NCBI GenBank assembly: GCA_963702475.1 | Contig: CAVPCT010000009.1 | Location: 160,001-224,000, forward strand | Direction: 5' to 3' | DNA length: 64,000 bases | Origin: an uncultured Thermoleophilia bacterium | GTDB lineage: Bacteria > Actinomycetota > Thermoleophilia > UBA2241 | Notes under the pieces: model-generated | Databases searched by the model: none | The model's input: the letters and a program-made list of their open reading frames with translations, nothing else | Told to the model about the DNA's origin: nothing | Shown here: positions 2,127 through 56,639 of the stretch, one piece after another | Layout: each line of letters starts with the position of its first letter | How positions within the stretch are numbered: the first letter of the stretch is position 1 | Position numbers and translations under genes: made by a program

Positions 2127-3425
2127 TCAGCACCCCGGCTCGAGCGCCGCGACGGCCTCCCGGCGGCGGCGCAGGAGCATGTGGACGGCGACCAGCACCA
2201 GCGCCGCCACGTTGATCACGGCGGCGATCACGAAGGCCTGCGAGAAGCTCCCGTCGCTGGCCTCGGCGACTTGGGCGGCGAGCCGCGGTCCGGCGTAGGC
2301 CGCCACGGCGATGGTCAGGAACATGATGCCGAAGTTCACGCCGAGGTGCCGCGCGCCGAAGGCGTCCGCAGTGACCGGTCCCATGAGCGAGAGGAACCCG
2401 CCGTAGCAGAGGCCGACGGTCGCGAGCGCGAGCACCACCATGAAGTAGGCCGTGGCCTGCGAGAGCACGACGAGGGCGAGGGCGGCGAGCACCAGCATGG
2501 AGGCGAACACGGGGTACCGCCCGATCCTGTCCGACAGGCTGCCCCACCCGACCTTGCCCAACACCATGCCGAGGGCCACGAAGCCGACGACCACGCCGGC
2601 CGCCTGCGGGGAGATGCCGAGGATCTCCTGGGCGATGGGGGACGCGTGCCCGAGCACCATCATGCCGGAGAACGTGCCGGCCACGAAGAGGGCGAAGAGC
2701 ACGTAGAAGTCGGGCGTGCGCAGCATGCCGCGCCAGTCGAGGTCGGCGTCCGTGTCGTCGCCGTCGATGGCCGGCACGTCGACCAGCGGCTCTTCGTGGG
2801 CGTCGATGTGGGGGGCGGTGTACACGAGCCGCGAGCTGAGTGCGATGGCGACGAAGAAGAACATGCCGAGGGCGACCAGCGTGACCGTGAGCCCGTACCT
2901 GTCGATGAGCAGGGCGGCGAGCGGGGCGCACACGACGCCGCCGACGCCGTAGCCGGCGGTGAGGATGCCCGAGGCCATGCCGCGGCGGTCGGGAAAGAAG
3001 CGGATGACGTTGGTCATGGTGCCGCCGGGGTACACGGCGCCCATGCCGAAGCCGGCGAGAAAGGAGAACCCGTACACGCCGGCCAGCGAGTGCACGAAGG
3101 CCAGGCACACGAGACCGAGGCCGATGAGCGCGCCGCCGACGATGATCACGGTGCGCGGTTTGACGTACTGCTGCGCCTTGCCGGCGACGATGCTGGCGAT
3201 GGCGCCGGCCCCCAGAAGGGCCGTGAACGACAAGGCGATGTCGGCCGTGGACCAGCCGGCGCCCTCCGCGAGCGGCCTCTGGAACACGCTCCAGGCGTAG
3301 CCGATGCCGGCGCAGAGGCTCGCCGCCACGCAGGCGGCGAGGGCGATCCAGCGGCGCCGGCCCGCGGTGACCGGCGCGGCGTCTGGGGCTGGGTCGGTGG
3401 TTGGGGCGGGGTCAGCGGCGCGCAT
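2127..3425 (-). CDS. MFS transporter, OFA (oxalate/formate antiporter-like) family
   Basis: About 12 hydrophobic segments; YAWSVF, FFPDRRGMASG, WGSLSDRIGR, FGARHLGVNFG motifs. Confidence 0.85.
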   Translation of the reverse strand: MRAADPAPTTDPAPDAAPVTAGRRRWIALAACVAASLCAGIGYAWSVFQRPLAEGAGWSTADIALSFTALLGAGAIASIVAGKAQQYVKPRTVIIVGGALIGLGLVCLAFVHSLAGVYGFSFLAGFGMGAVYPGGTMTNVIRFFPDRRGMASGILTAGYGVGGVVCAPLAALLIDRYGLTVTLVALGMFFFVAIALSSRLVYTAPHIDAHEEPLVDVPAIDGDDTDADLDWRGMLRTPDFYVLFALFVAGTFSGMMVLGHASPIAQEILGISPQAAGVVVGFVALGMVLGKVGWGSLSDRIGRYPVFASMLVLAALALVVLSQATAYFMVVLALATVGLCYGGFLSLMGPVTADAFGARHLGVNFGIMFLTIAVAAYAGPRLAAQVAEASDGSFSQAFVIAAVINVAALVLVAVHMLLRRRREAVAALEPGC

Positions 3426-4224
3426 ACGCCGCGATCTGGTCGTCGGTGAGGTAGCCGGGGTCGGCCTGGGCGCCGTAGCCGCCGCCGTCGATGACGACGA
3501 TCTGGCCGGTGATGTTGGCGGCCAGCGGGCTGGCGTAGTACACGGCCAGGGAGGCGACCTCCTCGGGCTGCGACAGGCGACCGAGCGGCACGAGCGCGGT
3601 CGCCGTGTCCATGCTGTCGCCGATGATGCCGAGCGTCATCTCGGTGAGCACACCGCCGGAGGCGATGGCGTTGACGGTGATGCCGTACTCGGCCCACTCC
3701 ATGGCGGCCTGGCGGCTGATCGCCGCCGCGGCGCCCTTGCTGGCGCTGTACATCGGCGAGCATAGTGGCTTGCGCATGCCGACGATGCCGGCGATCGAGG
3801 CGAAGTTCACGATGGCGCCCTTCTTGCGTCGCTTCATCGACTGGCCCACGACCTCACGCATCACGAAGAAGAGCGCTTTTGCGTTGATGGCGAAGACGTC
3901 GTCCCACTCCTGCTCGGTGACGTCCTCCGCGTAGCACTGCGGGCCGACGGCGGCCGGCTGGATGAGCACGTCGATCTCGCCCATCTCGGCGCGGATCTTC
4001 TCCACAAGCGGCTTGATCTCCGCGATCTTGCGCAGGTCCTGCGGGTACGCTTTGACCTCGCCCTTCTTCGCGAGCTCGGCCGCCGACGCGGCCAGCCTGT
4101 CCTCCATGATGTCCACCATGGCGACCTTGGCGCCGCTGCTGACGAGGATATCGGCGATGGCGTAGCCGATGCCGCGCGCCGAGCCGGTGACGACGGCGAC
4201 CTGGTTGTCGAAGCGGATCTCCAC
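3412..4224 (-). CDS. Short-chain dehydrogenase/reductase
   Basis: TGSARGIG, YSASK, VVIDGG. Confidence 0.9.
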   Translation of the reverse strand: MEIRFDNQVAVVTGSARGIGYAIADILVSSGAKVAMVDIMEDRLAASAAELAKKGEVKAYPQDLRKIAEIKPLVEKIRAEMGEIDVLIQPAAVGPQCYAEDVTEQEWDDVFAINAKALFFVMREVVGQSMKRRKKGAIVNFASIAGIVGMRKPLCSPMYSASKGAAAAISRQAAMEWAEYGITVNAIASGGVLTEMTLGIIGDSMDTATALVPLGRLSQPEEVASLAVYYASPLAANITGQIVVIDGGGYGAQADPGYLTDDQIAAYARR

Positions 4225-4286: not shown

Positions 4287-4335
4287 TTGACAGCGGGGAG
4301 GCCGGGGCCCAGTATATCGTAGAGCGAGCGCTCTA
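4287..4335 (+). promoter_or_regulatory. Promoter with palindromic operator TAGAGCG-AG-CGCTCTA
   Basis: TTGACA at 4287, CAGTAT 17 bp later, perfect 7-bp inverted repeat at 4320-4335 between divergent genes; TetR gene nearby. Confidence 0.55.
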
Positions 4336-4408
4336 TCTAGGGTCGTTCCGCGCCACTCAGCAAGATAGGCAGCAGACCACTGAGACCCAGTCGGGGAGGT
4401 CACACGCG

Positions 4409-5398
4409 ATGATCAGGGCCAACTACGAGTCCGACGCCGGCAAGCGCAGGGAGATCCCGCCGAGCGAGCTGGGCACGATCCCCTTCGTCCCGTTCGAAGA
4501 GTACCGCGAGATGTTCAAGCACTTCCTGCTCCTGAAGCGGGAGAACGGCATCCTCGAGGCCCGTCTGCACACCGACGGCGACAGCATGCAGTGGGGCGCC
4601 CCGGCGCACCAGGGCCTGCACGTGTTCTTCGACCTCGCCGGCCGCGACCTGGACAACGAGGTCATCATCCTGGGCGGCACCGGCCAGGACTTCATCAAGA
4701 GCATGGGCAAGGCGGACCTCAAGCAAGACGAGGAGACCAAGGAGTTCGAGTCGCAGGGCGACGACGCCTGGAAGCTCTACGAGTACCAGTACCTCGACGG
4801 CACCAAGAACATCGAGGGCCAGATCTTCGACATCCAGGTGCCCACCATCGGCATCTGGAACGGCGCCGCCTTCCACACCGACATCCCGCTGTTCTGCGAC
4901 CTCACCCTGTGCACCGAGGACGCCTGGACCACGGAGATGCACTTCCGCGTCAACATGGTGCCCGGCGACGGCATCCAGACGGTGTGGCGCGAGCTCATGG
5001 GCCGCAAGCGCTACGCCTATGCCGAGCTGACCGGCGAGGTCATCACCGCGCGCAAGGCGCTGGCGCTGGGCATGGTCAACGAGATCCTGCCGGACACCGA
5101 GGCTGCGTACGCGCGCGCCTGGGAGATCGCCGAGCTCATCATGCGCACCGGCTCGCGCGTGACGCGTCGCATCACCACCCAGCAGCTGCGCAAGCCCTGG
5201 AAAGAGGACATCGCCGACGAGCTCCGCAACGCCTTCTCGTCCGAGATGTACGTCACCGCGACCGAGCACTCCCCGCACGAGAACAAGTACTGGGAGTGGG
5301 CGCACGAAGAGGCCGGCCTGGTCCGCGCCGCCGAGGCCAAGGGCAAGGTCATCCGCCCGCGCGTCGACGGCGGCCACGAAGAGGACGAGATCAGGTAA
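4409..5398 (+). CDS. Crotonase-fold beta-diketone hydrolase (6-oxocamphor hydrolase CamK-like)
   Basis: LHTDGDSMQWGAPAH, DNEVIILGGTG, FHTDIP, HFRVNMVPGDG, RAWEIAE align with CamK as I recall it, including the catalytic His/Asp. Confidence 0.8.
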   Translation: MIRANYESDAGKRREIPPSELGTIPFVPFEEYREMFKHFLLLKRENGILEARLHTDGDSMQWGAPAHQGLHVFFDLAGRDLDNEVIILGGTGQDFIKSMGKADLKQDEETKEFESQGDDAWKLYEYQYLDGTKNIEGQIFDIQVPTIGIWNGAAFHTDIPLFCDLTLCTEDAWTTEMHFRVNMVPGDGIQTVWRELMGRKRYAYAELTGEVITARKALALGMVNEILPDTEAAYARAWEIAELIMRTGSRVTRRITTQQLRKPWKEDIADELRNAFSSEMYVTATEHSPHENKYWEWAHEEAGLVRAAEAKGKVIRPRVDGGHEEDEIR

Positions 5399-5438: not shown

Positions 5439-6179
5439 GTGAGCGAGCAGGCAGCCGTGAGCGCCATGAGCCAGGCCCTGACCGACATGCAGGAGCGCGT
5501 CGCCGGGCGTGAGCTGCCTGCGACCTCGCAGGACCGGGAGCTGACCGACATCCGCCGGCGGCAGATCGTCGACGGCGCCAGCGCGGTGCTCTTCGAGCAG
5601 GGCTTCCATGGCTGCTCGATTCGGGACATCGCACGCGCCTGCGAGATGTCGATGGGGCAGCTCTACCACTACATCTCCTCGAAGGACGACATCCTGTTCT
5701 TGATGCACGTCTACAGCCAGGAGATGTGGCACGAGCACCTGGCCGACGCGGGCTTCGACGCGATCGCCGACCCGGTGGACAAGCTCGAGCACGGCTTGCG
5801 GATCACGATGAAGTACCTCTCGGAGAACCGCGACCTGTACCAGTTCCTGTACACGGAGTCCAAGTACCTCGACCGCGAGCACCTTCGCGAAGTGCTGGAG
5901 CTGGACGACCAGAACGTGGTCGGCTTCTACCGGCACCTGCTGGCGCAGATCCCGGGCTTCGCCGACCGTGACCACGCCGACCTCGCCGCCAACCTGGTCG
6001 CGTTCGTCTGCGTGTTCCTCTCGCTGCGCGGCTGGAACCTGCACCTGGGTGGCGAGGCCGACGTGGACGCCGCCGTCGACTACCTCGTCGATTTCGTGTT
6101 CCGCGGCCTCGGCATCGAACGCGCCGTCAGGCAAGGCGACGGAGCGCAGACGACACACACTTCGGAGGAAAGCGCATGA
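5439..6179 (+). CDS. TetR-family transcriptional regulator
   Basis: [51 protein letters not shown]. Confidence 0.9.
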
Positions 6180-8498
6180 TGGTGATCCGCAAGGCGGCCG
6201 TGCTGGGCGCAGGCCTGATGGGCGCCACCGTGGCGGCCCAGCTGGCCAACGCCGGCATCCCGACGGTGGTGCTCGACCTGCCGCCGACCGAGACGGCCGA
6301 GAACGGCCTCGAAGGCGCTGGCCAAGGCGCGGCCGGCGCCGCTGGCCCACAAGGACCGCCAGGCGCTGCTCACCGCCGGCAACTTCGACAGACGACCTCG
6401 GACTGCTGGCCGACGTCGACTGGGTCGTCGAGGCGGTCGTCGAGAACCTCGAGGTCAAGACGGCGCTGTTCGCGCGCGTGGCCGAGCGCCTGAACGACCG
6501 CGCGATCGTCACGACCAACTCGTCCGGCCTCTCGGTGAACGCGATGGCCGAGGCCCTGCCGGAGGCGCTCAGGCCGAGGTTCTTCGGCGCTCACTTCTTC
6601 AACCCGCCGCGGTACATGTACCTGCTGGAGGTCATCCCGAGCGAGTACACCGACGCGGCGCTCGTGGATGCCTTCGCCGACTTCGCCTCCCTGCGCCTCG
6701 GCAAGGGCGTGGTGCGCTGCAACGACGCGCCCATGTTCGTGGCCAACCGCATCGGCATGTTCACCACCGTGCACGCGATGAACAAGATGGGCGAGTTCGG
6801 GCTGACGGTCGAAGAGGTGGACGCGGCCAGCGGGCCGGCCATCGGCCGCGCCGTGACGGCGACCTTCGGCACGGCGGACCTGGCCGGCTCGGACATCCTC
6901 GCGCACAACGTCGCCGCGCACGCGAGCACGGCGAGCGACGACGAGATGCTCGAGCTCTGGCAGGTGCCGGACTGGGTGCTGGCGCTCATCGACAGCGGCC
7001 GCACCGGCAACAAGTCCGGCAGCGGGTTCTTCAAGGACCGCCGGGCCCTGACCATCGACCCGGCGACGCTGGAGTACCGGCCGTTCCAGAAGCCGCGGCA
7101 GGCGAGCCTGCAGGCGGCGGCCGGCATCAAGGACCCGGTGGCGCGCGTCGCAGCCGTCATCTCCAAGGATGACGAGGCCGCGCGCTTCGCCTGGGAGATC
7201 CTCGCCGGCACGATGCTGTACGCGGCGCACCGCATCCCCGGCATCTGCGCCGACATCACCGCCGTCGACGACGCCATGCGCTGGGGCTACGCCTGGGACC
7301 TGGGACCGTTCGAGCTCTGGGACGCGCTCGGCGTGCCGGAGACGGTCGCGCGCATGCGCGAGGACGGCCGCCCGATCCCGGCGTGGGTCGAGGAGCTCGC
7401 CGCGTCCGAGACAGCCGTCGTTCTACCTGCGTGAGGACGGCCGCACGCTCATCTGGGGCCCGGGCCAGACGGAGCACAAGGCTCTGGCGCCGCGCGCGCG
7501 GAGCATCCAGCTCGCGCGGCTCAAGGCCACCGGCCACGTGCTGGCCGAGGACGAGCACGCCAGTCTCGTCGACCTCGGAGACCGCGTGGCCTGCATCGAG
7601 TTCCACACCAAGGCCAACATCGTCGGCGAGGGCGTGCTGGCCTTCATCGAGGCGACGCTCGCCGAGGCCGGGGGCGACTACGACGCGCTCGTCATCGGCA
7701 ATCAGGGCGCCCACTTCTCCGGCGGCGCCGACCTCAAGATGATGGTCGGCAAGATCGAGGCCGAGGACTGGGACGGCATCGACGCCACGCTGAGGAACGC
7801 GCAGCGCGCCAGCATGGCGCTCAAGTACGCGCCGGTCCCGGTCGTCGCCGCCCCGTTCGGGCGCGTCCTGGGCGGCGGTCTCGAGGTCTGTCTGCACTGC
7901 AGCCGCGTCCAGGCCCACACCGACGTCAGCATGGGCCTGGTCGAGACGGGCGTCGGCCTCGTGCCTGCGGCCGGCGGCATCAAAGAGACCGTGGTCCGCG
8001 CCATGGCGTTGCACAGCTGGCGAGGCCATCATGTTCCCGATCCTGCGCGAGCCCTGGGAGGCCATCACGATGGCCAAGACGTCACGCTCCGCGCTCGACG
8101 CCGCCGAGATGGGGTACCTGCGCGGCGGCGACGGCATCACCATGGACCGCGACAGCGTGATCTACGCCGCAAAGCAGGTCGCGCGCAGCATGGCCGACGC
8201 CGGCTACCAGCCGCCGGTGCCGCCGGCAATCACCGTGCAGGGCCGCGACGGCCTCGCCAACTTCCACAAGCTCCTGCACATCGTGCGCTGCGGCGACTTC
8301 ATCAGCGACCACGACCAGTTCCTCTCCGACCAGGTGGCGTGGGTGATGTGCGGCGGCGACGTGGACCCCGGCAGCGTGGTCGACGAGCAGTACCTGCTCG
8401 ACCTGGAGCGCCAGGCGTTCCTCACGGTGTGCCGCACCGAGAAGACGATGGAGCGGCTGCAGGCGATGCTGACCAGCGGCAAGCCGCTGCGCAATTGA
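6176..8498 (+). CDS. 3-hydroxyacyl-CoA dehydrogenase/enoyl-CoA hydratase (FadN-like), frameshifted near 6311, 6391, 7415 and 8015
   Basis: [58 protein letters not shown] and the C-terminal TSGKPLRN are spread over several frames. Confidence 0.85.
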
Positions 8499-8524: not shown

Positions 8525-9705
8525 ATGAGAGAAGCTGTGATCGTGTCCTCGGTGCGCACGCCGGTCGGCAAGGCGCCCCGAGGGCTCGCTGAAGACGGTG
8601 CGGCCGGAGACGCTGGCCGTGACCGCCATCCGCGCCGCCATGGAGCGGGCGCCGGGGCTGGACCCGGCCGAGATCGACGACATCGTCTGGGGCTGCGCGT
8701 TCCCCGAGGCCGAGCAGGGGCTCAACCTGGCCCGCTACGTCGGCATCCTGGCCGGGCTGCCCGAGAACGTGCCCGGCGTCACCGTGAACCGGTTCTGCTC
8801 GTCGGGCCTGCAGGCCATCGCCTTCGGCGCCCAGGCGATCATGAGCGGCATGGCCGACGTGATCCTGGCCGGCGGCACCGAGTCGATGTCGTGCGTGCCC
8901 GGCGGCGGCAACAAGGAGATGCCGGACGACGCCGTGGCCGCCGTCGGCCGCCGACGCGTACACCAGCATGGGCATGACGGCCGAGAACGTGGCCGAGCGC
9001 TACAACGTGAGCCGCGAGGAGCAGGACGCCTTCGCGGCGCAGAGCCAGGCGCGGGCGCTGGCGGCACAGGCCGAGGGCCGCTTCGACGACGAACTCGTGC
9101 CGGTCCCGGTGGTGCACCGGCGGCCCGGCCCGGGCGGGACGATCGTCGAGTCGACGACGATGTTCACCGCCGACGAGGGGCCGCGCCCGGGCAGCACGCC
9201 CGAGGTGCTGGCGAAGCTGCGCACGATCTTCAAGCAGAACGGTACCGTGACCGCCGGCAACTCGTCGCAGACGAGCGACGCCGGCGCGGCCGCCGTACTG
9301 ATGAGCGGCGAGAAGGCCGAGGCCTTGGGCCTCGAACCGCTCGCCGTGTTCCGCTCCTTCGCCTGCTACGGCGTCGACCCCGGCGTGATGGGCATCGGGC
9401 CGGCGTTCGCCATCCCGAAAGCCCTCAAGATCGCCGGCATCGGCATCGACGACGTCGACCTGGTCGAGCTCAACGAGGCCTTTGCCAGCCAGGCCGTGTA
9501 CTGCGTCCGCGAGCTCGGCCTGGACCCCGAGATCGTCAACGTCAACGGCGGCGCCATCGCGCTCGGGCATCCGCTCGGCGCGACCGGCGCCAAGCTCACG
9601 GCCACGCTGCTGCACGAGCTCAAGCGCCGCAAGGGCCGCTACGGCGTCGTGAGCATGTGCATCGCCGGCGGCCAGGGCGCCGCCGCCGTGTTCGAGCGCG
9701 TCTGA
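8525..9705 (+). CDS. Acetyl-CoA acyltransferase (thiolase), frameshifted near 8585 and 8945
   Basis: [52 protein letters not shown]. Confidence 0.9.
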
Positions 9706-9736: not shown

Positions 9737-11836
9737 ATGAAGTACACCAAGCTGCTGGAGCCGGGCTACATCGGCAAGGTGCGGACCCGCAACCGCATCT
9801 ACAAGACCGGCGCCGGCATGATGACCTTCCACGAGGACGAGCTCTCGATGAACGAGGATTCGCTCGGCTACTACGACGCCCTGGCCCGCGGCGGCGCGGG
9901 CGTCGTCACCGTCGAGGCGCCCACCATCGACTACCCGATGGGCGCGCGCTGGCGCGAGCGCTACCGCATGGACGACGACCGGTTCATCCCCGGGATGAAG
10001 GAGCTGGTGGACGTCATCCACAGCTACGGCGCCCCGGCGTTCATGCAGATGGAGCACGACGGGCCCTGGCAGTCGCCGCTCTTCGCCAACGCCCCGGCGA
10101 CCTTCGACGGACCGCCCATCGGCGCCTCAGCGATGAGCATCAACAGGATGGGCGACTTCCACCGCGACGTGATCCGCCCGCTCGCGGTGGCGGAGATCCA
10201 GGAGATCACGCGCAAGTACATCGACGGCGCGGAGCGCGCCCAGAAGGCCGGCTACGACGGCATCGACATCAACGCCGGCAGCAGCCACATCATCCACAAC
10301 TTCCTCTCGCCGTTCTGGAACAGGCGCACCGACGAGTACGGCGGCACGCAGCACAAGCGCGCCAAGCTGCTGCTCGACATCCTCACCGGCATCAAGGAGC
10401 GCTGCGGCTCCGACTTCCCGATCGTCGTCTGCCTCAACGGCTTCGAGGACGGCCACGCCATCGGCGCCGACCAGACGTTCACGCACGGCCAGGCCATCAT
10501 GACCATGCTGCTGGCCGAAGAGGCCGGCGCCGACGCCATCATGATCCGCAGCAGCTGGCTGGGCGTGCACGTGGCCGGGTTCCTGCCCGACTACCTGTTC
10601 TTCCCGGACGCGCAGGTGCCGCTCGACCAGATGCCGCCGCAGTACTACGCCAAGGAGCGCGGCCGCTCGGCCATGAAGCTGATGACCGACGAGGCCAGGA
10701 AGATCCTCTCCGTGCCGGTGATCCTGGTCGGCTACGTGACCCCGGACGACGGCGAGAAGCTGCTGGAGAAGGGCGCCGCCGACTTCATCGGCATGAACCG
10801 GCCGCTGATGTGCGATCCGAACCTGCCCAACAAGCTCGCCGCCGGTCACCCCGACGACGTCGCGCCCTGCACGCGCTGCGGCACCTGCCTCGACCAGAGC
10901 GAGCAGTTCCTGCGGCACTGCCGCCTGAACGCCGCACTCGGCTTCGGCTACCAGAACGTGCCGGCCCTCGAGGGGCCGCGCAAGAAGGTCGTCGTGGTGG
11001 GCGGCGGCCCGGCAGGCATGGAGGCCGCCCGCGTCGCGGCGCTGCGCGGCCACGACGTCACGCTCGTGGAGGCGGCGTCCCAGCTCGGCGGCCGCCTGCC
11101 GCTCGCCACGCTCATCAAGGGCAGCGACCTCGAGGACCTCCCCAACCTGATCCGCTACCTCAAGGGGCAGGTCAAGAAGAACGGCGTCAAGGTCATGCTC
11201 AACACCGAGGCGACGGCGGCGTCGATCAAGGCGATGGACGCCGACGTCGTGATCCTCGCGACCGGCGCCCAGCTCGCCGCGCCGGTCCTGCCGGGCACGC
11301 CGGGCGGCCAGAAGAAGGTCCTCACGACGCCCGAGCTCCACAAGCAGGTCAAGCCCTACCTGAAGACGCTCGGGCCCAAGGTGCTCGAGAAGGCGACGAA
11401 GTACCACCTGCCCATCGGCAAGAAGGTGGTCGTCGTCGGCGCCGGCCTGCACGGCATGGAGGTCGCCGAGTTCCTCGCCAAGCGCGGGCGCAAGGTGACC
11501 ATCGTCGAGCCGTCGGAGGTCATCGGCGAGGGCATGCTCGACTTCCGCCTCGGCCTGACCATGGACTGGCTGCCGTCAGTGGGCGTCGAGCTCGTGACCC
11601 GCGCAAGCGACCTCGAGGCCACCGACGCCGGCCTCGCCTACACCGACGCCGGCGGCGTGCGGCAGCTCATCCCCTGCGACACCATCCTGCCGACCGCGCC
11701 GCTCCAGCCCAACGACGAGCTGTACAAGGCGCTCGAGGGCGAGGTCCCCGAGCTGTTCCTCATCGGGGACGGCAAGGAGGCCGGCATGATCGTCCACGCG
11801 GTGCGCTCCGGCTACCAGACCGCCTGCGCGCTCTGA
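9737..11836 (+). CDS. NADH:flavin oxidoreductase (OYE barrel + 4Fe-4S + FAD; FadH/BaiCD/Fcr-type)
   Basis: [16 protein letters not shown]...CRLNA Fe-S motif, [12 protein letters not shown]. Confidence 0.9.
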
Positions 11837-16363: not shown

Positions 16364-17188
16364 GTGAACCCCATCATCACCGCAGCGCTGAACGGCCCCA
16401 TCGCCACGCGCGCGAACAACCCCAACCTGCCGGAGACGCCCGAGGACATCGCCACCAGCGCCAGGGGCGCCTACGAGGCCGGCGCCGCCGTCATCCACGT
16501 CCACCTGCGCGACGAGCAGGGCGGCTTCACCACCGACCTCGACGTGGCCAAGCGCACGGTCGAGCTGATCCGCGAGGCCTGCCCCGGCATCGTCCAGCTC
16601 TCCACCGGCGGGATGTTCGACTACGCCGACCGCATGCGCATCGTGGAGGCGAAGCCCGCCATGGCGACGCTGAACCCGTGCACCATGTCGTTCGCCGACG
16701 CCGAGTTCCGCAATCCGCCGAAGCAGATGCGGCAGATGGCGGCGCGCATGATCGAGTTGGGCGTGAAGCCCGAGGTGGAGCTCTACGATGTCGGCCACCT
16801 CGGCGTGATGCTCGACCTCGTGAACGAAGGCCTGCTGCTCGAGCCGTTGCAGGTGTCGTTCGTCATGGGCGTCAAAGGCGGCATGCCGGGCGACCCGCAA
16901 ATCCTCTCGTGGCTCGTGAAGAACCTGCCCGAGGGCACGAGCTGGCAGGTGATCGCCATCGCCAAGGCAAACCTGCCGATGACGTCTATCGGCCTCGCCA
17001 TGGGCGGCAACGCGCGCACGGGCATGGAGGATACGCTCATGGTGGCCTCGCACGTGCTCGCCGACTCCAACGCGCAGCTCGTGGAGCGCCTCATGAACAT
17101 CGCCCGCTCCATGCAGCGCGAGCCCGCCAAGGTCGACGAGGTCATCGAGCGGCTGAAGCTCAGCCCGGAGCTGATCGGACCGGGGTGA
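16364..17188 (+). CDS. Beta-keto acid cleavage enzyme (BKACE/Kce family)
   Basis: IITAALNG, NPNLPETPEDIA, AGAAVIHVHLRD, QLSTGG, GGNARTGMED, SNAQLVER. Confidence 0.9.
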   Translation: MNPIITAALNGPIATRANNPNLPETPEDIATSARGAYEAGAAVIHVHLRDEQGGFTTDLDVAKRTVELIREACPGIVQLSTGGMFDYADRMRIVEAKPAMATLNPCTMSFADAEFRNPPKQMRQMAARMIELGVKPEVELYDVGHLGVMLDLVNEGLLLEPLQVSFVMGVKGGMPGDPQILSWLVKNLPEGTSWQVIAIAKANLPMTSIGLAMGGNARTGMEDTLMVASHVLADSNAQLVERLMNIARSMQREPAKVDEVIERLKLSPELIGPG

Positions 17189-17433: not shown

Positions 17434-20403
17434 ATGCCTGACGTCGTTCCCGCGCACCTCAAGCTGCGCGCCGTCCTGTACGGCCTCGGCACGCTGCTGC
17501 GCGTGCGCGCGGCGGCCGACGCCGGCTTCCGCGCGCTGCTGGCGCGCCGGGACGCCGTCTTCCAGATCCGCCTGGCGGACGGCTCGGAGGCGCGCTGGTT
17601 CGCCGTCCGCGGCGGGCAGGTGACGTCCAAGGGCGGCGTGCACTCACGTCCTGACGCCGCCCTCGTGTTCGGTACGCCGCACGCCGCCCTGACGATGCTC
17701 AGCCTCAAGCCCGACTACCTCGGGCGCATCGAGGCGGCCAAGAACTTCCAGCTCGCCATGGAGGGTGACGACGACGTTGTCGGCTGGATGCTTGAGGTGC
17801 TCGCGCGCGCCGCCGGGGGCGAGCCCGAGTACGGGCTCGACCTCGGCGGCGGCGTGCGCCGCTACACCAACAACACCAACGGCGGGCCCGTGCACGTGGA
17901 CGTCAAGCACGGGCGCATCCTGCGCGTCACGCCCATCGAGTTCAGCGACGAGGACGCGCCGTCCTGGTCGATCACTGCGCGCGGCCGGCGCTTCGCCCCG
18001 CCGCGCAAGACGAGCCTCGCACCTCACGCGCTCTCGGCGCGGTCGACCGTGTACTCGCCCGACCGCCTGCTGTACCCGCTGAGGCGCGTCGACTTCGACC
18101 CGCACGGCGACCGGCACCCGGAGACCCGCGGCGTGGCCGAGTACGAGCGCATCAGCTGGGACGAGGCACTCGACCTCGTGGCCGGCGAGCTGATGCGCGT
18201 GCGCCGCGAGCACGGCCCGGGCTCCGTCTTCACGGCGCACGGCTCGCATCACACCTGGGGCACGCTCGGCTATTTCCTGAGCGCTCACCGGCGGTTCTTC
18301 AACACCGTCGGCTCGACGCGGATGCTGCACAACCCGGACAGCTGGGAGGGCTGGGCCTGGGGCGCCGAGCACCACTGGGGCCACAGCATGCGCGCCGGCG
18401 GGGGAGAGTTCTACGGCACGGTGGAGGACCTGCTGCGCGAGTGCGAGCTGGTCGTGTTCTGGGCGAGCGACCCGGAGGCGACCACCGGCATCTACGCCGG
18501 CATGGAGGGCACCGCCCGCCGGCGCTGGCTGCAGGAGCTCGGGATTCCCTGCGTACACATCGACCCGTTCCTGAACCACACGGCCTCGTGGCTCGGCGGC
18601 ACGTGGCTGGCGCCGCGACCGACGACGAGCGTCGCGCTGGCGCACGCGATCGCCTGGGTGTGGCTGACGGAGGGCCTGTACGACGAGCAGTACGTCGCGG
18701 AGCGCACCACAGGCTTCGAGGCGTGGCGCGACTACCTGCTGGGCGCGGACGACGGCGTGCCCAAGACGCCGGAGTGGCAGGAGCCGGAGACCGGCGTCCC
18801 CGCGCGCAAGGTCCGCGCCCTGGCGCGCGAGTGGGCGACGAAGAAGACGTACCTGGCGGTCGGCGGCCCCGGCAACACGTTCGGCGGCGCCTGCCGCTCG
18901 GCCACGGGCATCGAGTGGGCGCGCTCGATGGTCTATCTCATGGCGATGCGCGGGCTCGGCAAGCCGGGCGTCAACTTCGGCAACCTGCAGTTCGGCGCGC
19001 CGCTCGACACCACGTTCTACTTCCCCGGCTACGGTGAGGGCGGCCTCTCCGGCGACCTCGAGGGCACCATGATGTCCGCGCACCTGTACCAGCGCGTGCC
19101 CCAGCTCCCGACGATGAACCCGGTGGGGCAGAGCATCCCGCGCCTGCGGATCCCGGAGGCCCTGCTGGACGGGCGGGCCGAGGGCTACGCCTTCAGCCCG
19201 CCCACGGTGCAGGGCCAGTTCCGCCGCACCGTGTACCCGGAGCCCGGCTACTCGCAGGTGCGGCTGTACTACAAGTACGGCGGCTCGTTCTTCGGAACGA
19301 TGACAGAGACGAACCGGTACGTGCGCGCCTACCGGGCTCCGGATCTGGAGTTCGTCGTCAACCAGTCGATCTGGTTCGAGGGCGAGGCCCGGTTCGCCGA
19401 CGTGGTCCTGCCGGCGTGCACGAACTACGAGCGCTGGGACATCAGCGAATGGGCCAACTCGAGCGGCATCCTCGTGAACGGCATGACGCAGTGCAACCAC
19501 CGCGTGATCGTGCTGCAGCACAAGTGCATCGAGCCGCTCGGTGAGTCACGCTCGGACTGGAGCATCTTCGCGGCGCTGGCGGCGCGGATGGGGCTGGCGG
19601 CGCCGTTTGCCGAGGGGAGCAACGAGCTGGAGTGGGTGCGTCGGACCTTCGAGGGCAGCGACCTGCCGAAGGCTGTCTCGTGGCGCGAGTTCCTCAAGAA
19701 GGGGTACTACGTGGTGCCGCCGCCGGCTGAAGGGACGCCGAAGCCGGTGGCCTACCGCTGGTTCGCCGAGGGCCGCCCGAAGGACACGCCCGACCTGCAG
19801 CCGCTGCCGGGCGACTACGCCGGGAAGTTCGGCGAGGGCCTGCAGACGCAGTCCGGCAAGATCGAGTTCGTCTCGTCCAGCCTGACCCGCTTCGACCCTC
19901 ACGACCTGGAGCGGCCTCCGCTGGGCCGGTATCATCCCTCCTGGGAGGGACCGGCCCAGACCGAGCTGGCTGCGAAGTACCCGCTCCAGTTGATCTCGCC
20001 GCACCCGCGCTTCAGTCATCACACGCTCGACGACGGCAAGGACAGCTTCGTCAACGACGTGGTTGACCACCGCGTGCTGGTCGACGGCCGTTACTACTGG
20101 ATCGCGCGGCTCAATCCGCAGGACGCCGCCGCGCGGGGTATCGCCGACGGCGACCTCGTCCGGCTCTTCAACGACCGCGGCGCCGTGGTGTGCGCCGCCC
20201 GGCTCACGGAGCGCGTGCGGCCGGGCGTCGTGCACTCCTACGAGTCGTCCGCGGTGTACGAACCGTCCGGCGAGCCCGGCGCGTCCGCCGACCTGGGCGG
20301 CTGCGTGAACATCCTGACGCCCAGCCGTCCCATCGCCGCCAAGACGCACAGCATGGCGCCGAACTCGTGCCTGATCGAGGTGGAGGCCTGGGACAAGGCG
20401 TAA
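17434..20403 (+). CDS. Molybdopterin oxidoreductase similar to the pyrogallol-phloroglucinol transhydroxylase large subunit, with ~140-aa N-terminal SCP2-like extension
   Basis: TNNTNGGPVHVDVKHGRILRVTP, SHHTWG, HNPDSWEGW (Ser Mo ligand), HPRFSHHT and a C-terminal Mo-bisPGD binding domain. Confidence 0.85.
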   Translation: MPDVVPAHLKLRAVLYGLGTLLRVRAAADAGFRALLARRDAVFQIRLADGSEARWFAVRGGQVTSKGGVHSRPDAALVFGTPHAALTMLSLKPDYLGRIEAAKNFQLAMEGDDDVVGWMLEVLARAAGGEPEYGLDLGGGVRRYTNNTNGGPVHVDVKHGRILRVTPIEFSDEDAPSWSITARGRRFAPPRKTSLAPHALSARSTVYSPDRLLYPLRRVDFDPHGDRHPETRGVAEYERISWDEALDLVAGELMRVRREHGPGSVFTAHGSHHTWGTLGYFLSAHRRFFNTVGSTRMLHNPDSWEGWAWGAEHHWGHSMRAGGGEFYGTVEDLLRECELVVFWASDPEATTGIYAGMEGTARRRWLQELGIPCVHIDPFLNHTASWLGGTWLAPRPTTSVALAHAIAWVWLTEGLYDEQYVAERTTGFEAWRDYLLGADDGVPKTPEWQEPETGVPARKVRALAREWATKKTYLAVGGPGNTFGGACRSATGIEWARSMVYLMAMRGLGKPGVNFGNLQFGAPLDTTFYFPGYGEGGLSGDLEGTMMSAHLYQRVPQLPTMNPVGQSIPRLRIPEALLDGRAEGYAFSPPTVQGQFRRTVYPEPGYSQVRLYYKYGGSFFGTMTETNRYVRAYRAPDLEFVVNQSIWFEGEARFADVVLPACTNYERWDISEWANSSGILVNGMTQCNHRVIVLQHKCIEPLGESRSDWSIFAALAARMGLAAPFAEGSNELEWVRRTFEGSDLPKAVSWREFLKKGYYVVPPPAEGTPKPVAYRWFAEGRPKDTPDLQPLPGDYAGKFGEGLQTQSGKIEFVSSSLTRFDPHDLERPPLGRYHPSWEGPAQTELAAKYPLQLISPHPRFSHHTLDDGKDSFVNDVVDHRVLVDGRYYWIARLNPQDAAARGIADGDLVRLFNDRGAVVCAARLTERVRPGVVHSYESSAVYEPSGEPGASADLGGCVNILTPSRPIAAKTHSMAPNSCLIEVEAWDKA

Positions 20404-20629: not shown

Positions 20630-21391
20630 TCAGAGGCACATCCCCCGGTCGACCACCAGCACCTGCCCGGTGACGTACCGCGCAGCGTCGCTGGCCAGGA
20701 AGAGGATCGCCTCCGCCTGGTCGAGCACGTCGGACTCGCCGACGCTCATGTCGGTGTGCCGGGCGCAGATGGCCATGAACTCCCGGTCGAACTGCTCCAG
20801 CTTCTCCGGCAGGTTGAGCTCGGTGGGCGTCGGGCCGGGGCAGACGGCGTTGCAGCGGATCCCGGTGCCCGCGTACTGGATGGCGATGTTCTTCGTCAGG
20901 CCGATGACGCCGTACTTGGAGGCGGAGTACGCGGCGCCGCCGTTGCCGTAGACGCCGGCGATGGACGAGACGTTGACGATGCTGCCGGCCTGTCCCTCGT
21001 GGGCGCGCAGCAGGAACTCGCGGCAGAAGGAGAAGGTGCCGGTGAGGTTGACGGCGAGAACGGTGTCCCAGAGGTCGTCCGTCACGCGGATCGTCGGCGT
21101 GTGACGATCGACGATGCCCGCGTTGTTGACGAGGACGTCGATGCGTCCGAAGCGCTTGACGGTCTCGTCGCACACGTTGCGGCAGTCGTCGACGACGGTG
21201 ACGTCGGCGGGCAGGACGAAGGCCCTTCCGCCCGCCGCCTCGATGCGGTCGGCGACCTCTGCGAGCTTGTCGGCGCGGCGCGCGACCAGGACGACGGTCG
21301 CCCCCTCGCGCGCGAACAGTTCCGCTGTCGCCTCGCCGATGCCGGCGTTGGCTCCGGTGATGATGGCGATCTTGCCGACCAGCCTGTCCAA
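20630..21391 (-). CDS. Short-chain dehydrogenase/reductase
   Basis: TGANAGIG, NNAG, YSASK, NAVCPG. Confidence 0.9.
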   Translation of the reverse strand: MDRLVGKIAIITGANAGIGEATAELFAREGATVVLVARRADKLAEVADRIEAAGGRAFVLPADVTVVDDCRNVCDETVKRFGRIDVLVNNAGIVDRHTPTIRVTDDLWDTVLAVNLTGTFSFCREFLLRAHEGQAGSIVNVSSIAGVYGNGGAAYSASKYGVIGLTKNIAIQYAGTGIRCNAVCPGPTPTELNLPEKLEQFDREFMAICARHTDMSVGESDVLDQAEAILFLASDAARYVTGQVLVVDRGMCL

Positions 21392-23151: not shown

Positions 23152-23168
23152 GCGCCCTCCGTCTGCGA

Positions 23169-23198
23169 TTGACACGACCTTGCGCAGAACTCTAGCAT
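23169..23198 (+). promoter_or_regulatory. Sigma70-type promoter of the ferredoxin/flavoprotein/hydrolase operon
   Basis: TTGACA-18 bp-TAGCAT in an AT-richer divergent intergenic region. Confidence 0.5.
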
Positions 23199-23274
23199 GC
23201 ATAGCAACTATTCCAAGTCCTATAGCTCGCCGTCGCAGCCCGGCGGCGGAGATGCCAGGAGGTAGCGGGGAGAC

Positions 23275-23529: not shown

Positions 23530-25253
23530 CCGACCTCTCGCATCTCGGCCGGATCGAGACCGCAGACATCCTGGTGGTCGGCGGCGGCATCGGGGGTCTG
23601 GTCGCCGCCGTCGCGGCGAAGGAGAAGAACCCGGACGCCGACGTGCTCGTCGTCGAGCGCGCGACCTGCGGCTGGGCCGGCCAGGCCAACAAGGGGGCCG
23701 GCATCTGGTGGTACCTCGCCCCCGAGGACGACGCGGACGCGTTCGTGAAGTTCCACTGCGACCACATCGGCCACTACATCGAGGACCAGGAGCTGCTCGC
23801 CGAGTTCGGGCGCGAGAGCATGGACACGCTCGAGCGCATGGACGGCTGGACGCACAAGTTCCAGCGCCGTGAAGACGGGCAGTTCATCCACAAGCGCTTC
23901 AAGCCGTTCCTGCCCTGGAGCCTCACCGGCGCCGACCTCGACCTCATGCGCGTGCTCGCACGCCACGCGAAGAGGCTCGGCGTGCGCTTCATCGACAAGA
24001 CGTCGCTCACCGACCTGCTCACCGACGGCGGCCGCGTGGCCGGCGCCGTCGGCTTCGACCTGCTGGACGGCTCGCCCATCATCGTGCAGGCGCCGGCCGC
24101 CATCATCGCCACCGGCGGCCAGAGCTACCGCATCATGGGAATGTGGAGCTGCCAGCGCGGCGACGGCCTGGGTATGGCATGGCGCGCCGGAGCCGAGATG
24201 CGCAACGCCGAGTGGGGCCCGTTCGCCCAGCTCGCCGGCATCCGCGGCAAGGAGCCGCTCATCGGCGCGGAGGACGCCCTGTACAACGCGTGGCACGAGA
24301 AGCTCTCGCCGCGGTTCCGCGGCGAGTACGAGGCCGACGTGTGCGGCATGACCAGCGCCACCTGGTACAAGGAGATGGTGGCAGGCAACGGGCCGCTCGT
24401 GACGTTCCACCCGGAGAACTGGATGCTCGCCAACACCACCGAGGACGTTGAAGGCGGCACCGTGTGGGACCGCCCCGTCGCCGTGAAGTTCTGGACGACG
24501 CTCATCAGCCGCATCCGCGCCGCCGACGCGCCGGGCGCCTTTCTCGAGGTGTACCCGGCCGTACTCGGCGAGCTCTCGCCGATCAAGGTCGACCACCAGA
24601 TGGCGACGACGGTGCCGGGTCTCTACGCCTGCGGCAACGCCTGCTACAACGGCTCAGGCCTGCCCGGCGCCGTGCCCGCCTCGCCCGGGCGCATGCGCGG
24701 AGCCGGGCTCTACGGCGCCACCTTCATGGGCATCCGCGCCGGCGAGTCGGCGGCAGCCCAGGTGTCTCGCGCCGCGTCGCCCAAGCCCGACGCGGCGCAG
24801 GCCGAGGCGCTGGTCCACGAGGCACTCGCGCCGCTCGAGCGCGCTGATGGCACACCGGCCATGGACCTCGTCAAGGCCGTGCAGTACGCCGTGAACCCCG
24901 TCGGCTACTCGATCTACAAGAGCGAAGAGCGCATGAACGAGGCGCTCCAGCTCGTCCTGGACGTCAAGGAGCGCCTGCACCAGGCCAAGGCGGCCGACCC
25001 GCACTACCTGGTGGCCGCCCACGACGCGCGCAACATGGTCCTGAGCGCCGAGCTCTTCTACCGCACGGCGCTCGAGCGCAAGGAGTCGCGTGGCTGGTTC
25101 ATCCGCGAGGACTACCCCGAGCGCGACGACGCGCACTGGCTCAAGTGGATCAACGCCGCCGCCAGCGCGGGCGGCGGCGACATGCGCATCTGGACCGAGG
25201 ACGTGCCGCTGGAGCAGTACCCGTTCCGGCCGGCCGCAGCCGAGAGGAGCTGA
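23526..25253 (+). CDS. SDH/Frd/AprA-superfamily flavoprotein of unknown substrate
   Basis: ILVVGGGIGG, IIATGG, GDGLGMAWRAGAEMRN, GLYACG, RKESRG...REDYPERDD. Confidence 0.85.
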   Translation: MTDLSHLGRIETADILVVGGGIGGLVAAVAAKEKNPDADVLVVERATCGWAGQANKGAGIWWYLAPEDDADAFVKFHCDHIGHYIEDQELLAEFGRESMDTLERMDGWTHKFQRREDGQFIHKRFKPFLPWSLTGADLDLMRVLARHAKRLGVRFIDKTSLTDLLTDGGRVAGAVGFDLLDGSPIIVQAPAAIIATGGQSYRIMGMWSCQRGDGLGMAWRAGAEMRNAEWGPFAQLAGIRGKEPLIGAEDALYNAWHEKLSPRFRGEYEADVCGMTSATWYKEMVAGNGPLVTFHPENWMLANTTEDVEGGTVWDRPVAVKFWTTLISRIRAADAPGAFLEVYPAVLGELSPIKVDHQMATTVPGLYACGNACYNGSGLPGAVPASPGRMRGAGLYGATFMGIRAGESAAAQVSRAASPKPDAAQAEALVHEALAPLERADGTPAMDLVKAVQYAVNPVGYSIYKSEERMNEALQLVLDVKERLHQAKAADPHYLVAAHDARNMVLSAELFYRTALERKESRGWFIREDYPERDDAHWLKWINAAASAGGGDMRIWTEDVPLEQYPFRPAAAERS

Positions 25254-25257
25254 CCCG

Positions 25258-26112
25258 ATGGCGACCAGCAGGGAGTGCGCCGCGCGCGAACCCGCGCCGC
25301 TCACGGCGGAAGAGCAGGCCAGGCCGTACGCCAAGTACTACACGATGGACCTGGGCGGGGCCGACCCGGCAGCCCTGGAGCTCATGGCCCGCGACCGGCA
25401 GGTCCCGCAGGGCAAGATGCTCATGCCGGAGGACCTGGACAGGCTGCTCGACCCGGGCAACTTCGAGGTCGAGACCGGCTGGGGCATGATGGACAACGGC
25501 GCCGGTTACATCGCCATGCGCCACGAGATGCCGGGCGTCACCGTCGAGATGATCGACTGGTGGTTCGCCTGGCACCCCCTCGAGCCGCTGCGCTACCGCA
25601 TCTGGTACCCGCAGTACCACCTGGGCATCGGTCTCGACGAGTGGGTGCGTCCCCGCCTCAAGGACCCCGACGTCCCCGTGCGCGACAAGGTCGAGCAGGT
25701 CGTCCACCACGTGACCGAGGACACGGGCTGCGGCACCGAGCACATCGACATCCACTTCCTCACGCCGGAGCAGATGGGCTTCGACATGAACCGCTGGCAC
25801 GCGCCCAACGTGGGCACCTTCGTCGGCGGCTTCGGCTTCAGCCTCAACGAGCACCAGCCGGCGGATCTCCCCGCGGCGCCGGCCATCATGGTCCACTTCG
25901 TGCGCGAGATGGACGGCGGCGTGGAGTGGCGCACGCGCTTCTGGATGGGCTACACCATCATGGGCGGCCACCCGGTGTGCATGCTGCCGCCGGGCGTGCG
26001 CATCCCCGAAGAGGTGCCGCACGGCCTCGCCAACCACAACGTGCACGAGTACGGGCGCCTCAAGGCGCTGCTGCCGCTGATCTACGCCGAGCTCGGCGGC
26101 ACCTACGCATGA
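25258..26112 (+). CDS. Phloretin hydrolase/DAPG hydrolase (Phy/PhlG family) paralog 1
   Basis: PYAKYY, ETGW, MPGVTVEMIDWWFAWH, RYRIWYP, RTRFWMG; metal ligands H...E...HNVHE. Confidence 0.9.
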   Translation: MATSRECAAREPAPLTAEEQARPYAKYYTMDLGGADPAALELMARDRQVPQGKMLMPEDLDRLLDPGNFEVETGWGMMDNGAGYIAMRHEMPGVTVEMIDWWFAWHPLEPLRYRIWYPQYHLGIGLDEWVRPRLKDPDVPVRDKVEQVVHHVTEDTGCGTEHIDIHFLTPEQMGFDMNRWHAPNVGTFVGGFGFSLNEHQPADLPAAPAIMVHFVREMDGGVEWRTRFWMGYTIMGGHPVCMLPPGVRIPEEVPHGLANHNVHEYGRLKALLPLIYAELGGTYA

Positions 26113-27869: not shown

Positions 27870-27884
27870 AGCGAGAGGAGAGCA

Positions 27885-28667: not shown

Positions 28668-28683
28668 CGAGGAGGTCGAGACG

Positions 28684-29523: not shown

Positions 29524-29542
29524 AGCCGCGCGGAGGAACCCC

Positions 29543-30337: not shown

Positions 30338-30341
30338 TGCC

Positions 30342-46294: not shown

Positions 46295-46307
46295 GGGGAA
46301 GAGAGAG

Positions 46308-55412: not shown

Positions 55413-55447
55413 TGGGCGGTGCCACCGGCGTCCGCGCCGGCACGGGT

Positions 55448-55496: not shown

Positions 55497-55518
55497 CTCT
55501 GTCTCGCCTGCCGGTGGA

Positions 55519-56638: not shown

Positions 56639-56639
56639 G

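Follow-up and report, generated by a model that had tools for sequence, protein, structure and literature searches.

Here, I report on OCHL-A, a predicted ring-opening hydrolase encoded at 4409-5398 of a 64,000-nucleotide stretch of DNA from an uncultured Thermoleophilia bacterium (contig CAVPCT010000009.1, C9:160001-224000; the whole stretch is hereafter called the window). Its sequence makes it very probable that OCHL-A is a beta-diketone hydrolase of the 6-oxocamphor hydrolase (OCH) type, presumably one that performs a retro-Claisen cleavage independently of CoA. The OCHL-A family probably opens a phloroglucinol-type ring ahead of a beta-keto acid cleavage enzyme (BKACE) resembling triacetate acetoacetate-lyase (TAL). 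As to the reaction itself, I tentatively propose that the keto tautomer of phloroglucinol would be hydrolysed directly to 3,5-dioxohexanoate (triacetate), and prefer this to the hydrolysis of dihydrophloroglucinol. These proposals are built on family membership, conserved catalytic residues, synteny, phyletic coupling and a polyphenol context, from which I infer the substrate, the product and the independence of CoA.

The reading frame

The frame is open for 329 codons followed by a stop, and its third positions are 93% G+C, like those of the real genes in the window (overall G+C 69.5%). Translation is taken to begin at 4409, not at the upstream ATG at 4169, because the aligned homologues share the same initial Met; a ribosome-binding site can be read from the sequence 9 nt 5' of this ATG. 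The divergent intergenic region between the hydrolase and a short-chain dehydrogenase/reductase (SDR) gene, SDR 3412, holds an imperfect palindrome that may be an operator.

4320..4339, no strand assigned: imperfect palindrome TAGAGCGAGCGCTCTATCTA, candidate operator
4393..4399, + strand: ribosome-binding site GGGGAGG
4409..5398, + strand: OCHL-A, predicted 6-oxocamphor-hydrolase-like beta-diketone (retro-Claisen) hydrolase, 329 aa

Enzyme class

In a phmmer search against all PDB chains, the top match of OCHL-A is OCH (1o8u; E 8.3e-33, 117.6 bits) and the second is the OCH H122A mutant (1szo), recognisable by the Ala in the H122 column; the Anabaena beta-diketone hydrolase 2j5g comes next (E 4e-29, 105.5 bits), and the best ordinary enoyl-CoA hydratase, 7mcm, reaches E 4.7e-15 and 59.2 bits. 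The ranking is the same with a profile of 30 family members, which gives OCH E 1.3e-47 (166 bits), 2j5g E 1.3e-45 (160 bits) and the best hydratase 88 bits. The PDB matches cover OCHL-A residues 27-269, and the match begins at residue 27 versus residue 6 of OCH.

The original prediction had pointed to a Trp/His/His/His/Asp pattern of the OCH kind, and the motifs concerned are indeed in place (MQWGAPAH, residues 60-67; FHTD, 155-158; HF...PGDG, 178-188), with W62, H156, H178 and D187 aligned to OCH W40, H122, H145 and D154. The profile alignment stops at OCH residue 242 (S277 of the query), and an ungapped extension by two residues sets E244 of OCH on E279. In OCH, catalytic roles are given to W40, H122, the H145/D154 dyad and E244 in the structure papers, and W62, H156, H178, D187 and E279 are proposed as the catalytic residues of OCHL-A. 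These five and H290 are invariant in 30/30 aligned relatives, a set that includes two B-type paralogues from contig C2 of the same genome that are 34-36% identical to OCHL-A. The predicted N- and C-terminal extensions are also borne out by the alignment with OCH: OCHL-A has about 21 additional N-terminal residues, an insertion at about 100-121 and about 50 residues past the end of the OCH match. The last 105 residues, searched alone against the PDB, gave chance-level matches only, and residues ~290-329 form a C-terminal extension that is conserved only in the close family of the 30-sequence alignment.

The conventional reading would be an ordinary enoyl-CoA hydratase/isomerase of beta-oxidation, with CoA thioesters as substrates and the FadB-like protein and thiolase encoded downstream as partners. 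Pfam, searched at E up to 1, gives ECH_1 alone (41.2 bits, cut-off 27; residues 134-264, a partial profile), and 'enoyl-CoA hydratase/isomerase family' is the only name in the sources among the matches listed. This reading is nevertheless very unlikely, given the 117.6 bits of OCH against 59 for the best true hydratase, the invariance of the OCH catalytic residues, and the NCBIfam hydratase models, none of the 25 listed reaching its cut-off (best 75.8 bits vs 354). Moreover, the conserved neighbours of the family are BKACE and transporter genes, not those of beta-oxidation, and the TetR-fadB-thiolase module that follows OCHL-A in the window occurs intact and without OCHL-A in the relative G020 (locus L066). 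The PF04199 domain with its Mn-binding His motif, typical of dihydrophloroglucinol cyclohydrolase (DPGC), was not found in OCHL-A by Pfam at E up to 1. CurH, a beta-diketone hydrolase of curcumin considered as a possible OCH-like relative, was rejected, being a thiolase homologue in the accessible portion of its description (PMC11407993).

A widely transferred family

A word-indexed search returned 195 proteins at E <=1e-10. Among the 120 of these that were listed, identities are 55-95%, most full-length members have about 330 aa, and the public names, where present, read only 'enoyl-CoA hydratase/isomerase family protein'; an Atlas search with the homologue P0027 likewise gave 'enoyl-CoA hydratase' clusters only. 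The wider OCH-like superfamily comprises 63 clusters at E <=1e-30 and 407 at E <=1e-10 in a 50%-identity library. OCHL-A is the name used here for a tight, widely transferred and uncharacterised family of ~330-aa proteins.

Carriers are Brenneria (6 species), Pantoea, Klebsiella indica, Phytobacter and Tolumonas; Telmatospirillum, Rhodopseudomonas palustris BisB18, Rhodoplanes, Cohaesibacter, Consotaella and Breoghania; Propionicimonas, Actinotalea, Demequina and Cellulomonas, and spirochaetes, Dehalococcoidia, deltaproteobacterial metagenome-assembled genomes (MAGs), a Eubacterium MAG and others. From 41 genomes, 45 related loci (numbered L below) were collected, of which 32 are flanked by 8 kb or more on either side.

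In the source organism OCHL-A is accessory and probably acquired, since it was not found at E <=1e-60 in 60 other genomes of the same family, and a member of the same genus (G016) keeps only a 53-residue C-terminal remnant, 81% identical (L071:9583-9741). A fragmented OCHL-A adjoins a partial BKACE in Enterobacter sp. EA-1 (L057); the hydrolase-BKACE module is lost as readily as gained.

Gene neighbourhoods

Neighbours were counted by tblastn with the source-genome proteins against all 45 loci, and gene orders were read from Pfam scans of a selection of them. OCHL-A has a BKACE within 10 kb in 24/45 loci, within 3 kb in 17/45, and in 20/32 of the well-flanked ones; for a thiolase the figures are 22/45 within 10 kb and 15/45 within 3 kb. 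SDRs at least 45% identical to a second SDR of the window, SDR 20630, are found within 10 kb in 10/45 loci and within 3 kb in 8/45. A PF04199-type cyclase occurs within 10 kb at one locus of the 45 (5.3 kb away, and 34% identical to a paralogue that is not a DPGC) and within 3 kb at none (0/45), as does a 3-hydroxyacyl-CoA dehydrogenase (3HCDH) of the type of the 3-hydroxy-5-oxohexanoate dehydrogenase TfD (1/45 and 0/45). A B-type OCH-like paralogue adjoins OCHL-A in 6/45 loci, always within 3 kb.

The BKACE association recurs under differing gene orders in Enterobacterales, Tolumonas, Telmatospirillum, Hyphomicrobiales, spirochaetes and actinomycetes, and L016, L017, L039, L044, L047 and L052 were seen to have operons that combine it with a thiolase and an acetoacetate CoA-transferase. 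Brenneria and Tolumonas have the order LysR / OCHL-A, BKACE, thiolase, CoA-transferase A+B, major facilitator superfamily (MFS) transporter, outer-membrane 'phenol degradation' channel, thiolase; the Telmatospirillum order resembles it, and R. palustris and Cohaesibacter have the same parts, though scattered. The channel gene is a feature of the proteobacterial operons, and other loci, like the window, have an MFS gene close to that of the hydrolase. The Pfam scan found no oxidoreductase genes in the operons of Enterobacterales and Tolumonas. The spirochaete order is ene-reductase, BKACE, thiolase, CoA-transferase, MFS, SDR, OCHL-A, HpaB-family protein, acyl-CoA dehydrogenase, electron-transfer flavoprotein, with HpaB-family genes flanking OCHL-A, and that of actinomycetes is SDR / OCHL-A / LysR, then BKACE with a phosphotriesterase-family gene. 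At L035:13150-16226 and L036:12566-15560 the BKACE is flanked by weak acetate/butyrate-kinase-like and phosphotriesterase-family (lactonase-like) genes, which replace thiolase and CoA-transferase; judged by the position of the BKACE, L041 and L053 are arranged likewise.

Hints of polyphenol substrates come from a pirin gene adjoining the Brenneria operon, from a UbiD decarboxylase in Rhodoplanes (L038), and from genes resembling PhlG/phloretin hydrolase and chalcone isomerase (CHI) near OCHL-A in L015 and L045 too, and beside it in Dehalococcoidia. No monoterpene catabolic genes were found among the neighbours scanned. OCH being the closest solved relative, OCHL-A might be a terpenoid enzyme that cleaves a bicyclic diketone of camphor-type monoterpene catabolism; this is the least probable of the explanations considered, as the aligned regions are about one-third identical (by eye, uncounted), OCHL-A has additional N- and C-terminal segments and an insertion, and its neighbours indicate acetate-unit chemistry and polyphenols.

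Phyletic coupling and BKACE phylogeny

The BKACE type linked to OCHL-A (at least 60% identity) is encoded in 30/41 OCHL-A genomes, with a partial copy in one more, and an SDR of the 20630 type (E <=1e-65) in 21/41. In Brenneria's family, OCHL-A is present in 2 of 81 genomes, and a full-length BKACE at least 80% identical is present in the same 2; a partial copy is found in the genome with a decayed OCHL-A, and four others have only 53-55% matches. These genomes are related, not independent, so the figures are counts and not tests. A draw of 150 genomes from Brenneria's order found OCHL-A in the query genome only, too sparse for a profile.

A maximum-likelihood tree of BKACEs (n=33) places all 22 OCHL-A-linked sequences in one clade (support 100/99), which adjoins (97/94, 99/94) the BKACEs from three canonical phloroglucinol clusters, those of Brenneria izbisi, a spirochaete and an actinomycete MAG. 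These three clusters comprise SDR, 3HCDH, cyclase and BKACE, with a small cupin in the first two and a thiolase in that of Brenneria. Taken together, a functional tie of the OCHL-A family to BKACE, thiolase and acetoacetate handling is supported across many phyla.

Canonical and proposed routes from ring to acetyl-CoA

In the canonical route of Clostridium scatologenes, as given in the portion of the published account at hand (PMC10470551), phloroglucinol is reduced by phloroglucinol reductase (PGR), DPGC, of the Mn-dependent 'cyclase' family, opens dihydrophloroglucinol to 3-hydroxy-5-oxohexanoate, the 3HCDH-type TfD oxidises this to triacetate, and the BKACE TAL converts triacetate to acetoacetate and acetoacetyl-CoA; a thiolase and a CoA-transferase, both in the C. 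scatologenes cluster, complete it. The canonical opener is thus not the cupin-type cyclohydrolase that had been supposed. A full-text search, with many subscription papers outside its coverage, found no literature linking an OCH-like enzyme to phloroglucinol or BKACE, and the accessible part of a 2025 paper describes the gene for 1,3-cyclohexanedione hydrolase as still not identified. No NCBIfam model is specific for PGR, DPGC or TAL; generic or Kce-like models, below cut-off, are all that the SDRs and BKACEs matched there. Three SDRs searched against the PDB matched generic FabG and gluconate-dehydrogenase entries, none named phloroglucinol reductase.

I propose that OCHL-A would act as a cofactor-free C-C hydrolase of the OCH branch of the crotonase superfamily, in which the His178/Asp187 pair would activate water, while Trp62, His156 and probably Glu279 would polarise carbonyls and stabilise the enolate, allowing a retro-Claisen cut of the bond between two ring carbonyls. 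The ring-opened product would pass to the TAL-like BKACE, and thiolase and acetoacetate CoA-transferase would take the carbon on to acetyl-CoA. With direct hydrolysis, OCHL-A alone would replace PGR, DPGC and TfD. In gene content, the OCHL-A operon has the entire lower half of the canonical route, with one new enzyme in place of three.

Direct hydrolysis of phloroglucinol is favoured because eight of the 41 genomes have the hydrolase and BKACE in an operon and neither a 20630-type SDR nor a DPGC orthologue, namely Brenneria sp. L3-3Z, B. rubrifaciens, B. salicis, K. indica, Pantoea sp. B65, Phytobacter sp. V69, Consotaella and one Propionicimonas MAG. In five of the eight, the best matches to the canonical reductase-like SDR of B. 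izbisi are at most 40% identical, and those to its 3HCDH at most 36%, or there are none at E 1e-30. The direct route also fits the oxidoreductase-free operons of Enterobacterales and Tolumonas, and on chemical grounds a single hydrolytic step to a beta-keto acid would be possible only from a 1,3,5-triketone.

Alternatively, an SDR could reduce phloroglucinol (or resorcinol to 1,3-cyclohexanedione), OCHL-A would open the resulting non-aromatic 1,3-dione as a non-orthologous replacement of the cyclase-type DPGC, and a dehydrogenase would make the beta-keto acid for the BKACE. I consider this sequence of steps somewhat doubtful, although several observations agree with it: SDR 3412 adjoins the gene and the 20630-type SDR recurs with the family; Tolumonas, Telmatospirillum and R. 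palustris BisB18 possess the operon and a 20630-type SDR, with no PF04199 protein genome-wide; and the C2 cluster described below combines a PGR-like SDR, 3HCDH, cupin, BKACE and molybdoenzyme with an OCH-like pair in place of the cyclase. Also, the characterised OCH-type enzymes act on non-enolisable bicyclic, non-aromatic diketones. The difficulty lies in the product. Dihydrophloroglucinol, the substrate of the original prediction, would give 3-hydroxy-5-oxohexanoate (PMC10470551, the portion at hand), which is not a BKACE substrate and needs a dehydrogenase first; many OCHL-A operons encode none, and a TfD-type 3HCDH is near OCHL-A at the single locus already mentioned. From 1,3-cyclohexanedione, 5-oxohexanoate would result, which is not a beta-keto acid either. 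The eight genomes listed above speak against a reduction step too, and SDR 3412, originally named as the partner, is not conserved with the family, giving short fragment matches only in the 45 loci; the SDR lineage that accompanies the family is that of SDR 20630, to which SDR 3412 is 29% identical.

A further explanation keeps the enzyme class and changes the substrate to another beta-di- or triketone ending in acetyl units, such as phloroglucinol carboxylate (giving 3,5-dioxopimelate), monoacetylphloroglucinol, a C-methylated or tetrahydroxy ring or a flavonoid-derived diketone, OCHL-A then complementing a canonical cluster. OCHL-A and the canonical system may indeed take different substrates, because the two co-exist in 9/41 OCHL-A genomes, which have an orthologue (67-87% identical) of the DPGC-like cyclase on contig C3 of the source genome, and in the source genome itself. 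The pirin and UbiD genes point to carboxylated rings, pirins having quercetinase activity; the B-type paralogue beside OCHL-A, the ene-reductase, HpaB-family, SnoaL, CHI-like and PhlG-like genes that surround it in anaerobes, and the separation of the OCHL-A-linked BKACE clade from the canonical ones agree with this explanation as well. It is unlikely all the same, for that clade is the nearest neighbour of the canonical-cluster BKACEs, the remaining operon genes fit the needs of triacetate exactly, and 32/41 carriers lack a DPGC orthologue, so that a purely complementary role is not required.

Several points weigh against direct hydrolysis of phloroglucinol, or against a phloroglucinol ring-opening role in the source organism. 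Phloroglucinol is aromatic, unlike the OCH-type substrates mentioned above, and the direct route leaves the 20630-type SDR (8/45 loci within 3 kb; 21/41 genomes) unexplained. In the window, a different SDR (3412) and an MFS gene divergently adjoin OCHL-A. Eleven of the 32 well-flanked loci have neither a BKACE nor a 20630-type SDR. A BKACE of the OCHL-A-linked type was not found in the source genome (best match 40% identical), where the BKACE nearest to OCHL-A in the window is ~11 kb away, and a complete canonical cluster is present there and in the nine genomes just mentioned. OCHL-A was not found in the 60 other genomes searched of the organism's family, and its role in the source genome could be marginal. 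Finally, the full-text search found no paper on any member of the OCHL-A family within its coverage.

The window

The window is, as read from its gene content, a predicted flavonoid/polyphenol island that would make phloroglucinol. The genes behind this reading are three PhlG-like hydrolase genes, a CHI-like gene, ene-reductases and a molybdoenzyme resembling pyrogallol transhydroxylase; the PhlG-like and CHI-like genes and the ene-reductases lie downstream of OCHL-A. Its features, besides those given above, are the following.

2127..3425, - strand: MFS transporter, overlapping the end of SDR 3412
3412..4224, - strand: SDR 3412, divergent from the hydrolase
5439..6179, + strand: TetR regulator, 69% identical to the TetR heading the intact fadB-thiolase module of G020
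6176..8495, + strand: FadB-like 3-hydroxyacyl-CoA dehydrogenase/enoyl-CoA hydratase fusion, in four frame segments (intact in G020, 792 aa)
8525..9702, + strand: thiolase, in three frame segments (intact in G020, 392 aa)
9737..11836, + strand: ene-reductase, old yellow enzyme (OYE) plus pyridine-nucleotide-disulphide oxidoreductase; orthologues 51-71% identical near OCHL-A in L026 and L045
12513..14084, + strand: HpaB-family protein; orthologues 69-77% identical near OCHL-A in L026 and L045
14206..16300 (end approximate), + strand: ADP-forming acyl-CoA synthetase, with a frame change near 15580-15980
16373..17188 (start approximate), + strand: BKACE
17434..20403, + strand: molybdoenzyme resembling the large subunit of pyrogallol hydroxytransferase (AhtL-like); paralogues 60-66% identical in the C3 and C2 clusters
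20630..21391, - strand: SDR 20630, of the lineage accompanying OCHL-A elsewhere; orthologues 50-59% identical
25090..31250, + strand: predicted phloroglucinol-releasing part of the island, with PhlG-like, CHI-like and EthD genes
25090-26112, 28684-29523 and 30342-31250, + strand: PhlG/phloretin-hydrolase-like genes
27885-28667, + strand: chalcone-isomerase-N-like gene
within 25090..31250, + strand: EthD-domain gene

The MFS transporter and SDR 3412 probably form one operon. TetR 5439 was considered as the regulator of the hydrolase and rejected, because its counterpart in G020 heads the fadB-thiolase module, which is therefore its probable target. The downstream thiolase, counted in the original prediction as a member of the pathway, reads as frameshifted in this assembly, as does the FadB-like gene, and belongs to the same module. 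The C-terminal part of the synthetase and the BKACE share one frame without an intervening stop. For the frame breaks, assembly indels are as likely as decay, since genes of the C2 cluster are split as well as the window synthetase. The window BKACE is 73% identical to that of C3 and 71% to that of C2, and 33-37% to the OCHL-A-linked BKACEs elsewhere; the BKACE-thiolase-CoA-transferase neighbourhood met with in the family therefore fits the window only loosely. The route of ring reduction, hydrolysis and keto-acid cleavage first put forward for this locus is thus kept in part: the OCH-type hydrolase, the coupling of the family to BKACE and thiolase and the polyphenol island stand, while SDR 3412, the window's own thiolase and the fit of the dihydrophloroglucinol product do not.

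Scattered through the island are four regulators that combine a MerR-type helix-turn-helix and a TetR N-terminal domain in one protein (22195-23409 on the - strand, 44584-45513, 57305-58345 and 60545-61474). Two pairs of a corrinoid (B12-binding) protein and a URO-D-like methyltransferase (45656-47567, and 54551-57272 on the - strand) resemble anaerobic O-demethylase systems, which fits methoxylated aromatic substrates. The left edge of the island has a ParE-like toxin ORF (17-355) and a nucleotidyltransferase/HEPN pair (808-1996).

Other clusters of the source genome

The assembly (4.3 Mb, 9 contigs, 94% complete) contains three parallel modules, on C3, on C2 and in the window, each with an AhtL-like molybdoenzyme and a BKACE, the BKACEs being 69-73% identical. 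The original prediction had named a canonical cluster elsewhere in the genome as a finding that would tell against it, and C3 (576-583 kb) has one that is complete by its predicted genes (two SDRs, 3HCDH, PF04199 cyclase, cupin and BKACE). The C3 module as a whole has the order molybdoenzyme, IclR, two SDRs, 3HCDH, IclR, PF04199 cyclase, cupin, BKACE; OCHL-A would work in parallel with this cluster. Given the likely start, the C3 cyclase has Trp20 and Tyr22, matching the Trp and Tyr reported for the C. scatologenes DPGC in the portion of its account at hand (PMC10470551), and is 67-87% identical to the cyclases of canonical clusters elsewhere. Three PF04199 genes occur in the genome, at C3:580 kb and C9:91-93 kb.

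The C2 cluster (C2:354481-363400; L012:4481-13400) comprises a split 3HCDH, an SDR, a small cupin, a molybdoenzyme, a BKACE, two OCH-like genes and a split ADP-forming acyl-CoA synthetase. Its PGR-like SDR is 48% and its BKACE 69% identical to those of C3, and the tandem B-type OCH-like paralogues (34-36% identical to OCHL-A) occupy the position of the C3 cyclase. The recurrence of an OCH-like enzyme with a BKACE suggests a two-step unit for the cleavage of polyketone rings.

The molybdoenzyme paralogues (window 17434-20403, C3:572601-575539 and C2:356643-359207; 60-66% identical) each adjoin a BKACE, and the three sets suggest parallel entry routes for different hydroxybenzenes. A small cupin of ~110-116 aa, 40-65% identical between copies, is constant in canonical and B-type OCH-like clusters; it is absent from the portion at hand of the C. 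scatologenes account (PMC10470551). Its copies are:

C3:581527-581877
C2:356257-356598
L042:8479-8814
L078:7386-7697
L079:6531-6872

A separate cluster at C9:89171-96594 (L010:5171-12594) may serve to open the ring of a different cyclic ketone. Besides an SDR, a crotonase, a thiolase and a thiolase-like protein, it encodes a family III CoA-transferase, a ChsH2-like OB-fold protein and two tandem PF04199 cyclases in which the Trp-x-Tyr of DPGC is missing.

Implications

Phloroglucinol is the funnel for the oxygenase-free mineralisation of flavonoids and tannins, and metagenome surveys of its degradation in gut, rumen and peat use PGR, DPGC, TfD and TAL as markers. If OCHL-A is a second, unrelated ring-opening family, such surveys would miss carriers, 32/41 OCHL-A genomes being without a DPGC orthologue. 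If, moreover, hydrolysis is direct, OCHL-A would bind an aromatic triol as its triketo tautomer and make reductase, Mn cyclohydrolase and dehydrogenase unnecessary. It would be a rare instance of dearomatisation by hydrolysis with no redox cofactor involved; a redox-neutral route of four enzymes (hydrolase, BKACE, thiolase and CoA-transferase) would then lead from phloroglucinol to acetyl-CoA. Such a route would have spread by gene transfer among tree-associated Enterobacterales, Proteobacteria of peat and sediment, spirochaetes, actinomycetes and Dehalococcoidia. A family annotated everywhere as 'enoyl-CoA hydratase' gains a testable function.

Comparison with known systems

OCH of Rhodococcus sp. 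NCIMB 9784 (1o8u, 1szo) shares with OCHL-A the crotonase fold and the catalytic residues W40, H122, H145 and D154, and is its best sequence match. OCHL-A is longer (329 aa vs 257 aa), has an insertion of ~20 residues and a conserved C-terminal tail of ~40 residues that OCH lacks, and lies in a context of polyphenol and acetate-unit catabolism, not of terpenes. Alr4455 of Anabaena sp. PCC 7120 (2j5g) has the region of the catalytic motifs in common with OCHL-A and is shorter, with 263 aa; it is not known to be linked to a BKACE. The class of enzymes to which OCHL-A belongs is not known to have a metal motif.

PhlG/phloretin hydrolases (PF18089), of which the window has three copies, are likewise cofactor-light C-C hydrolases, acting on beta-triketone tautomers of the phloroglucinol type; their fold, however, is unrelated, and PhlG cuts the exocyclic bond between acyl group and ring, freeing phloroglucinol while the ring stays closed. 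DPGC of C. scatologenes, as far as its accessible description goes, resembles the step proposed for OCHL-A in that a retro-Claisen ring opening precedes TAL, thiolase and CoA-transferase, yet DPGC is a Mn-dependent PF04199 protein that needs PGR before it and TfD after it, whereas OCHL-A has the unrelated crotonase fold. OCHL-A may represent a non-orthologous way of opening the ring within a known pathway, and its chemistry may be new.

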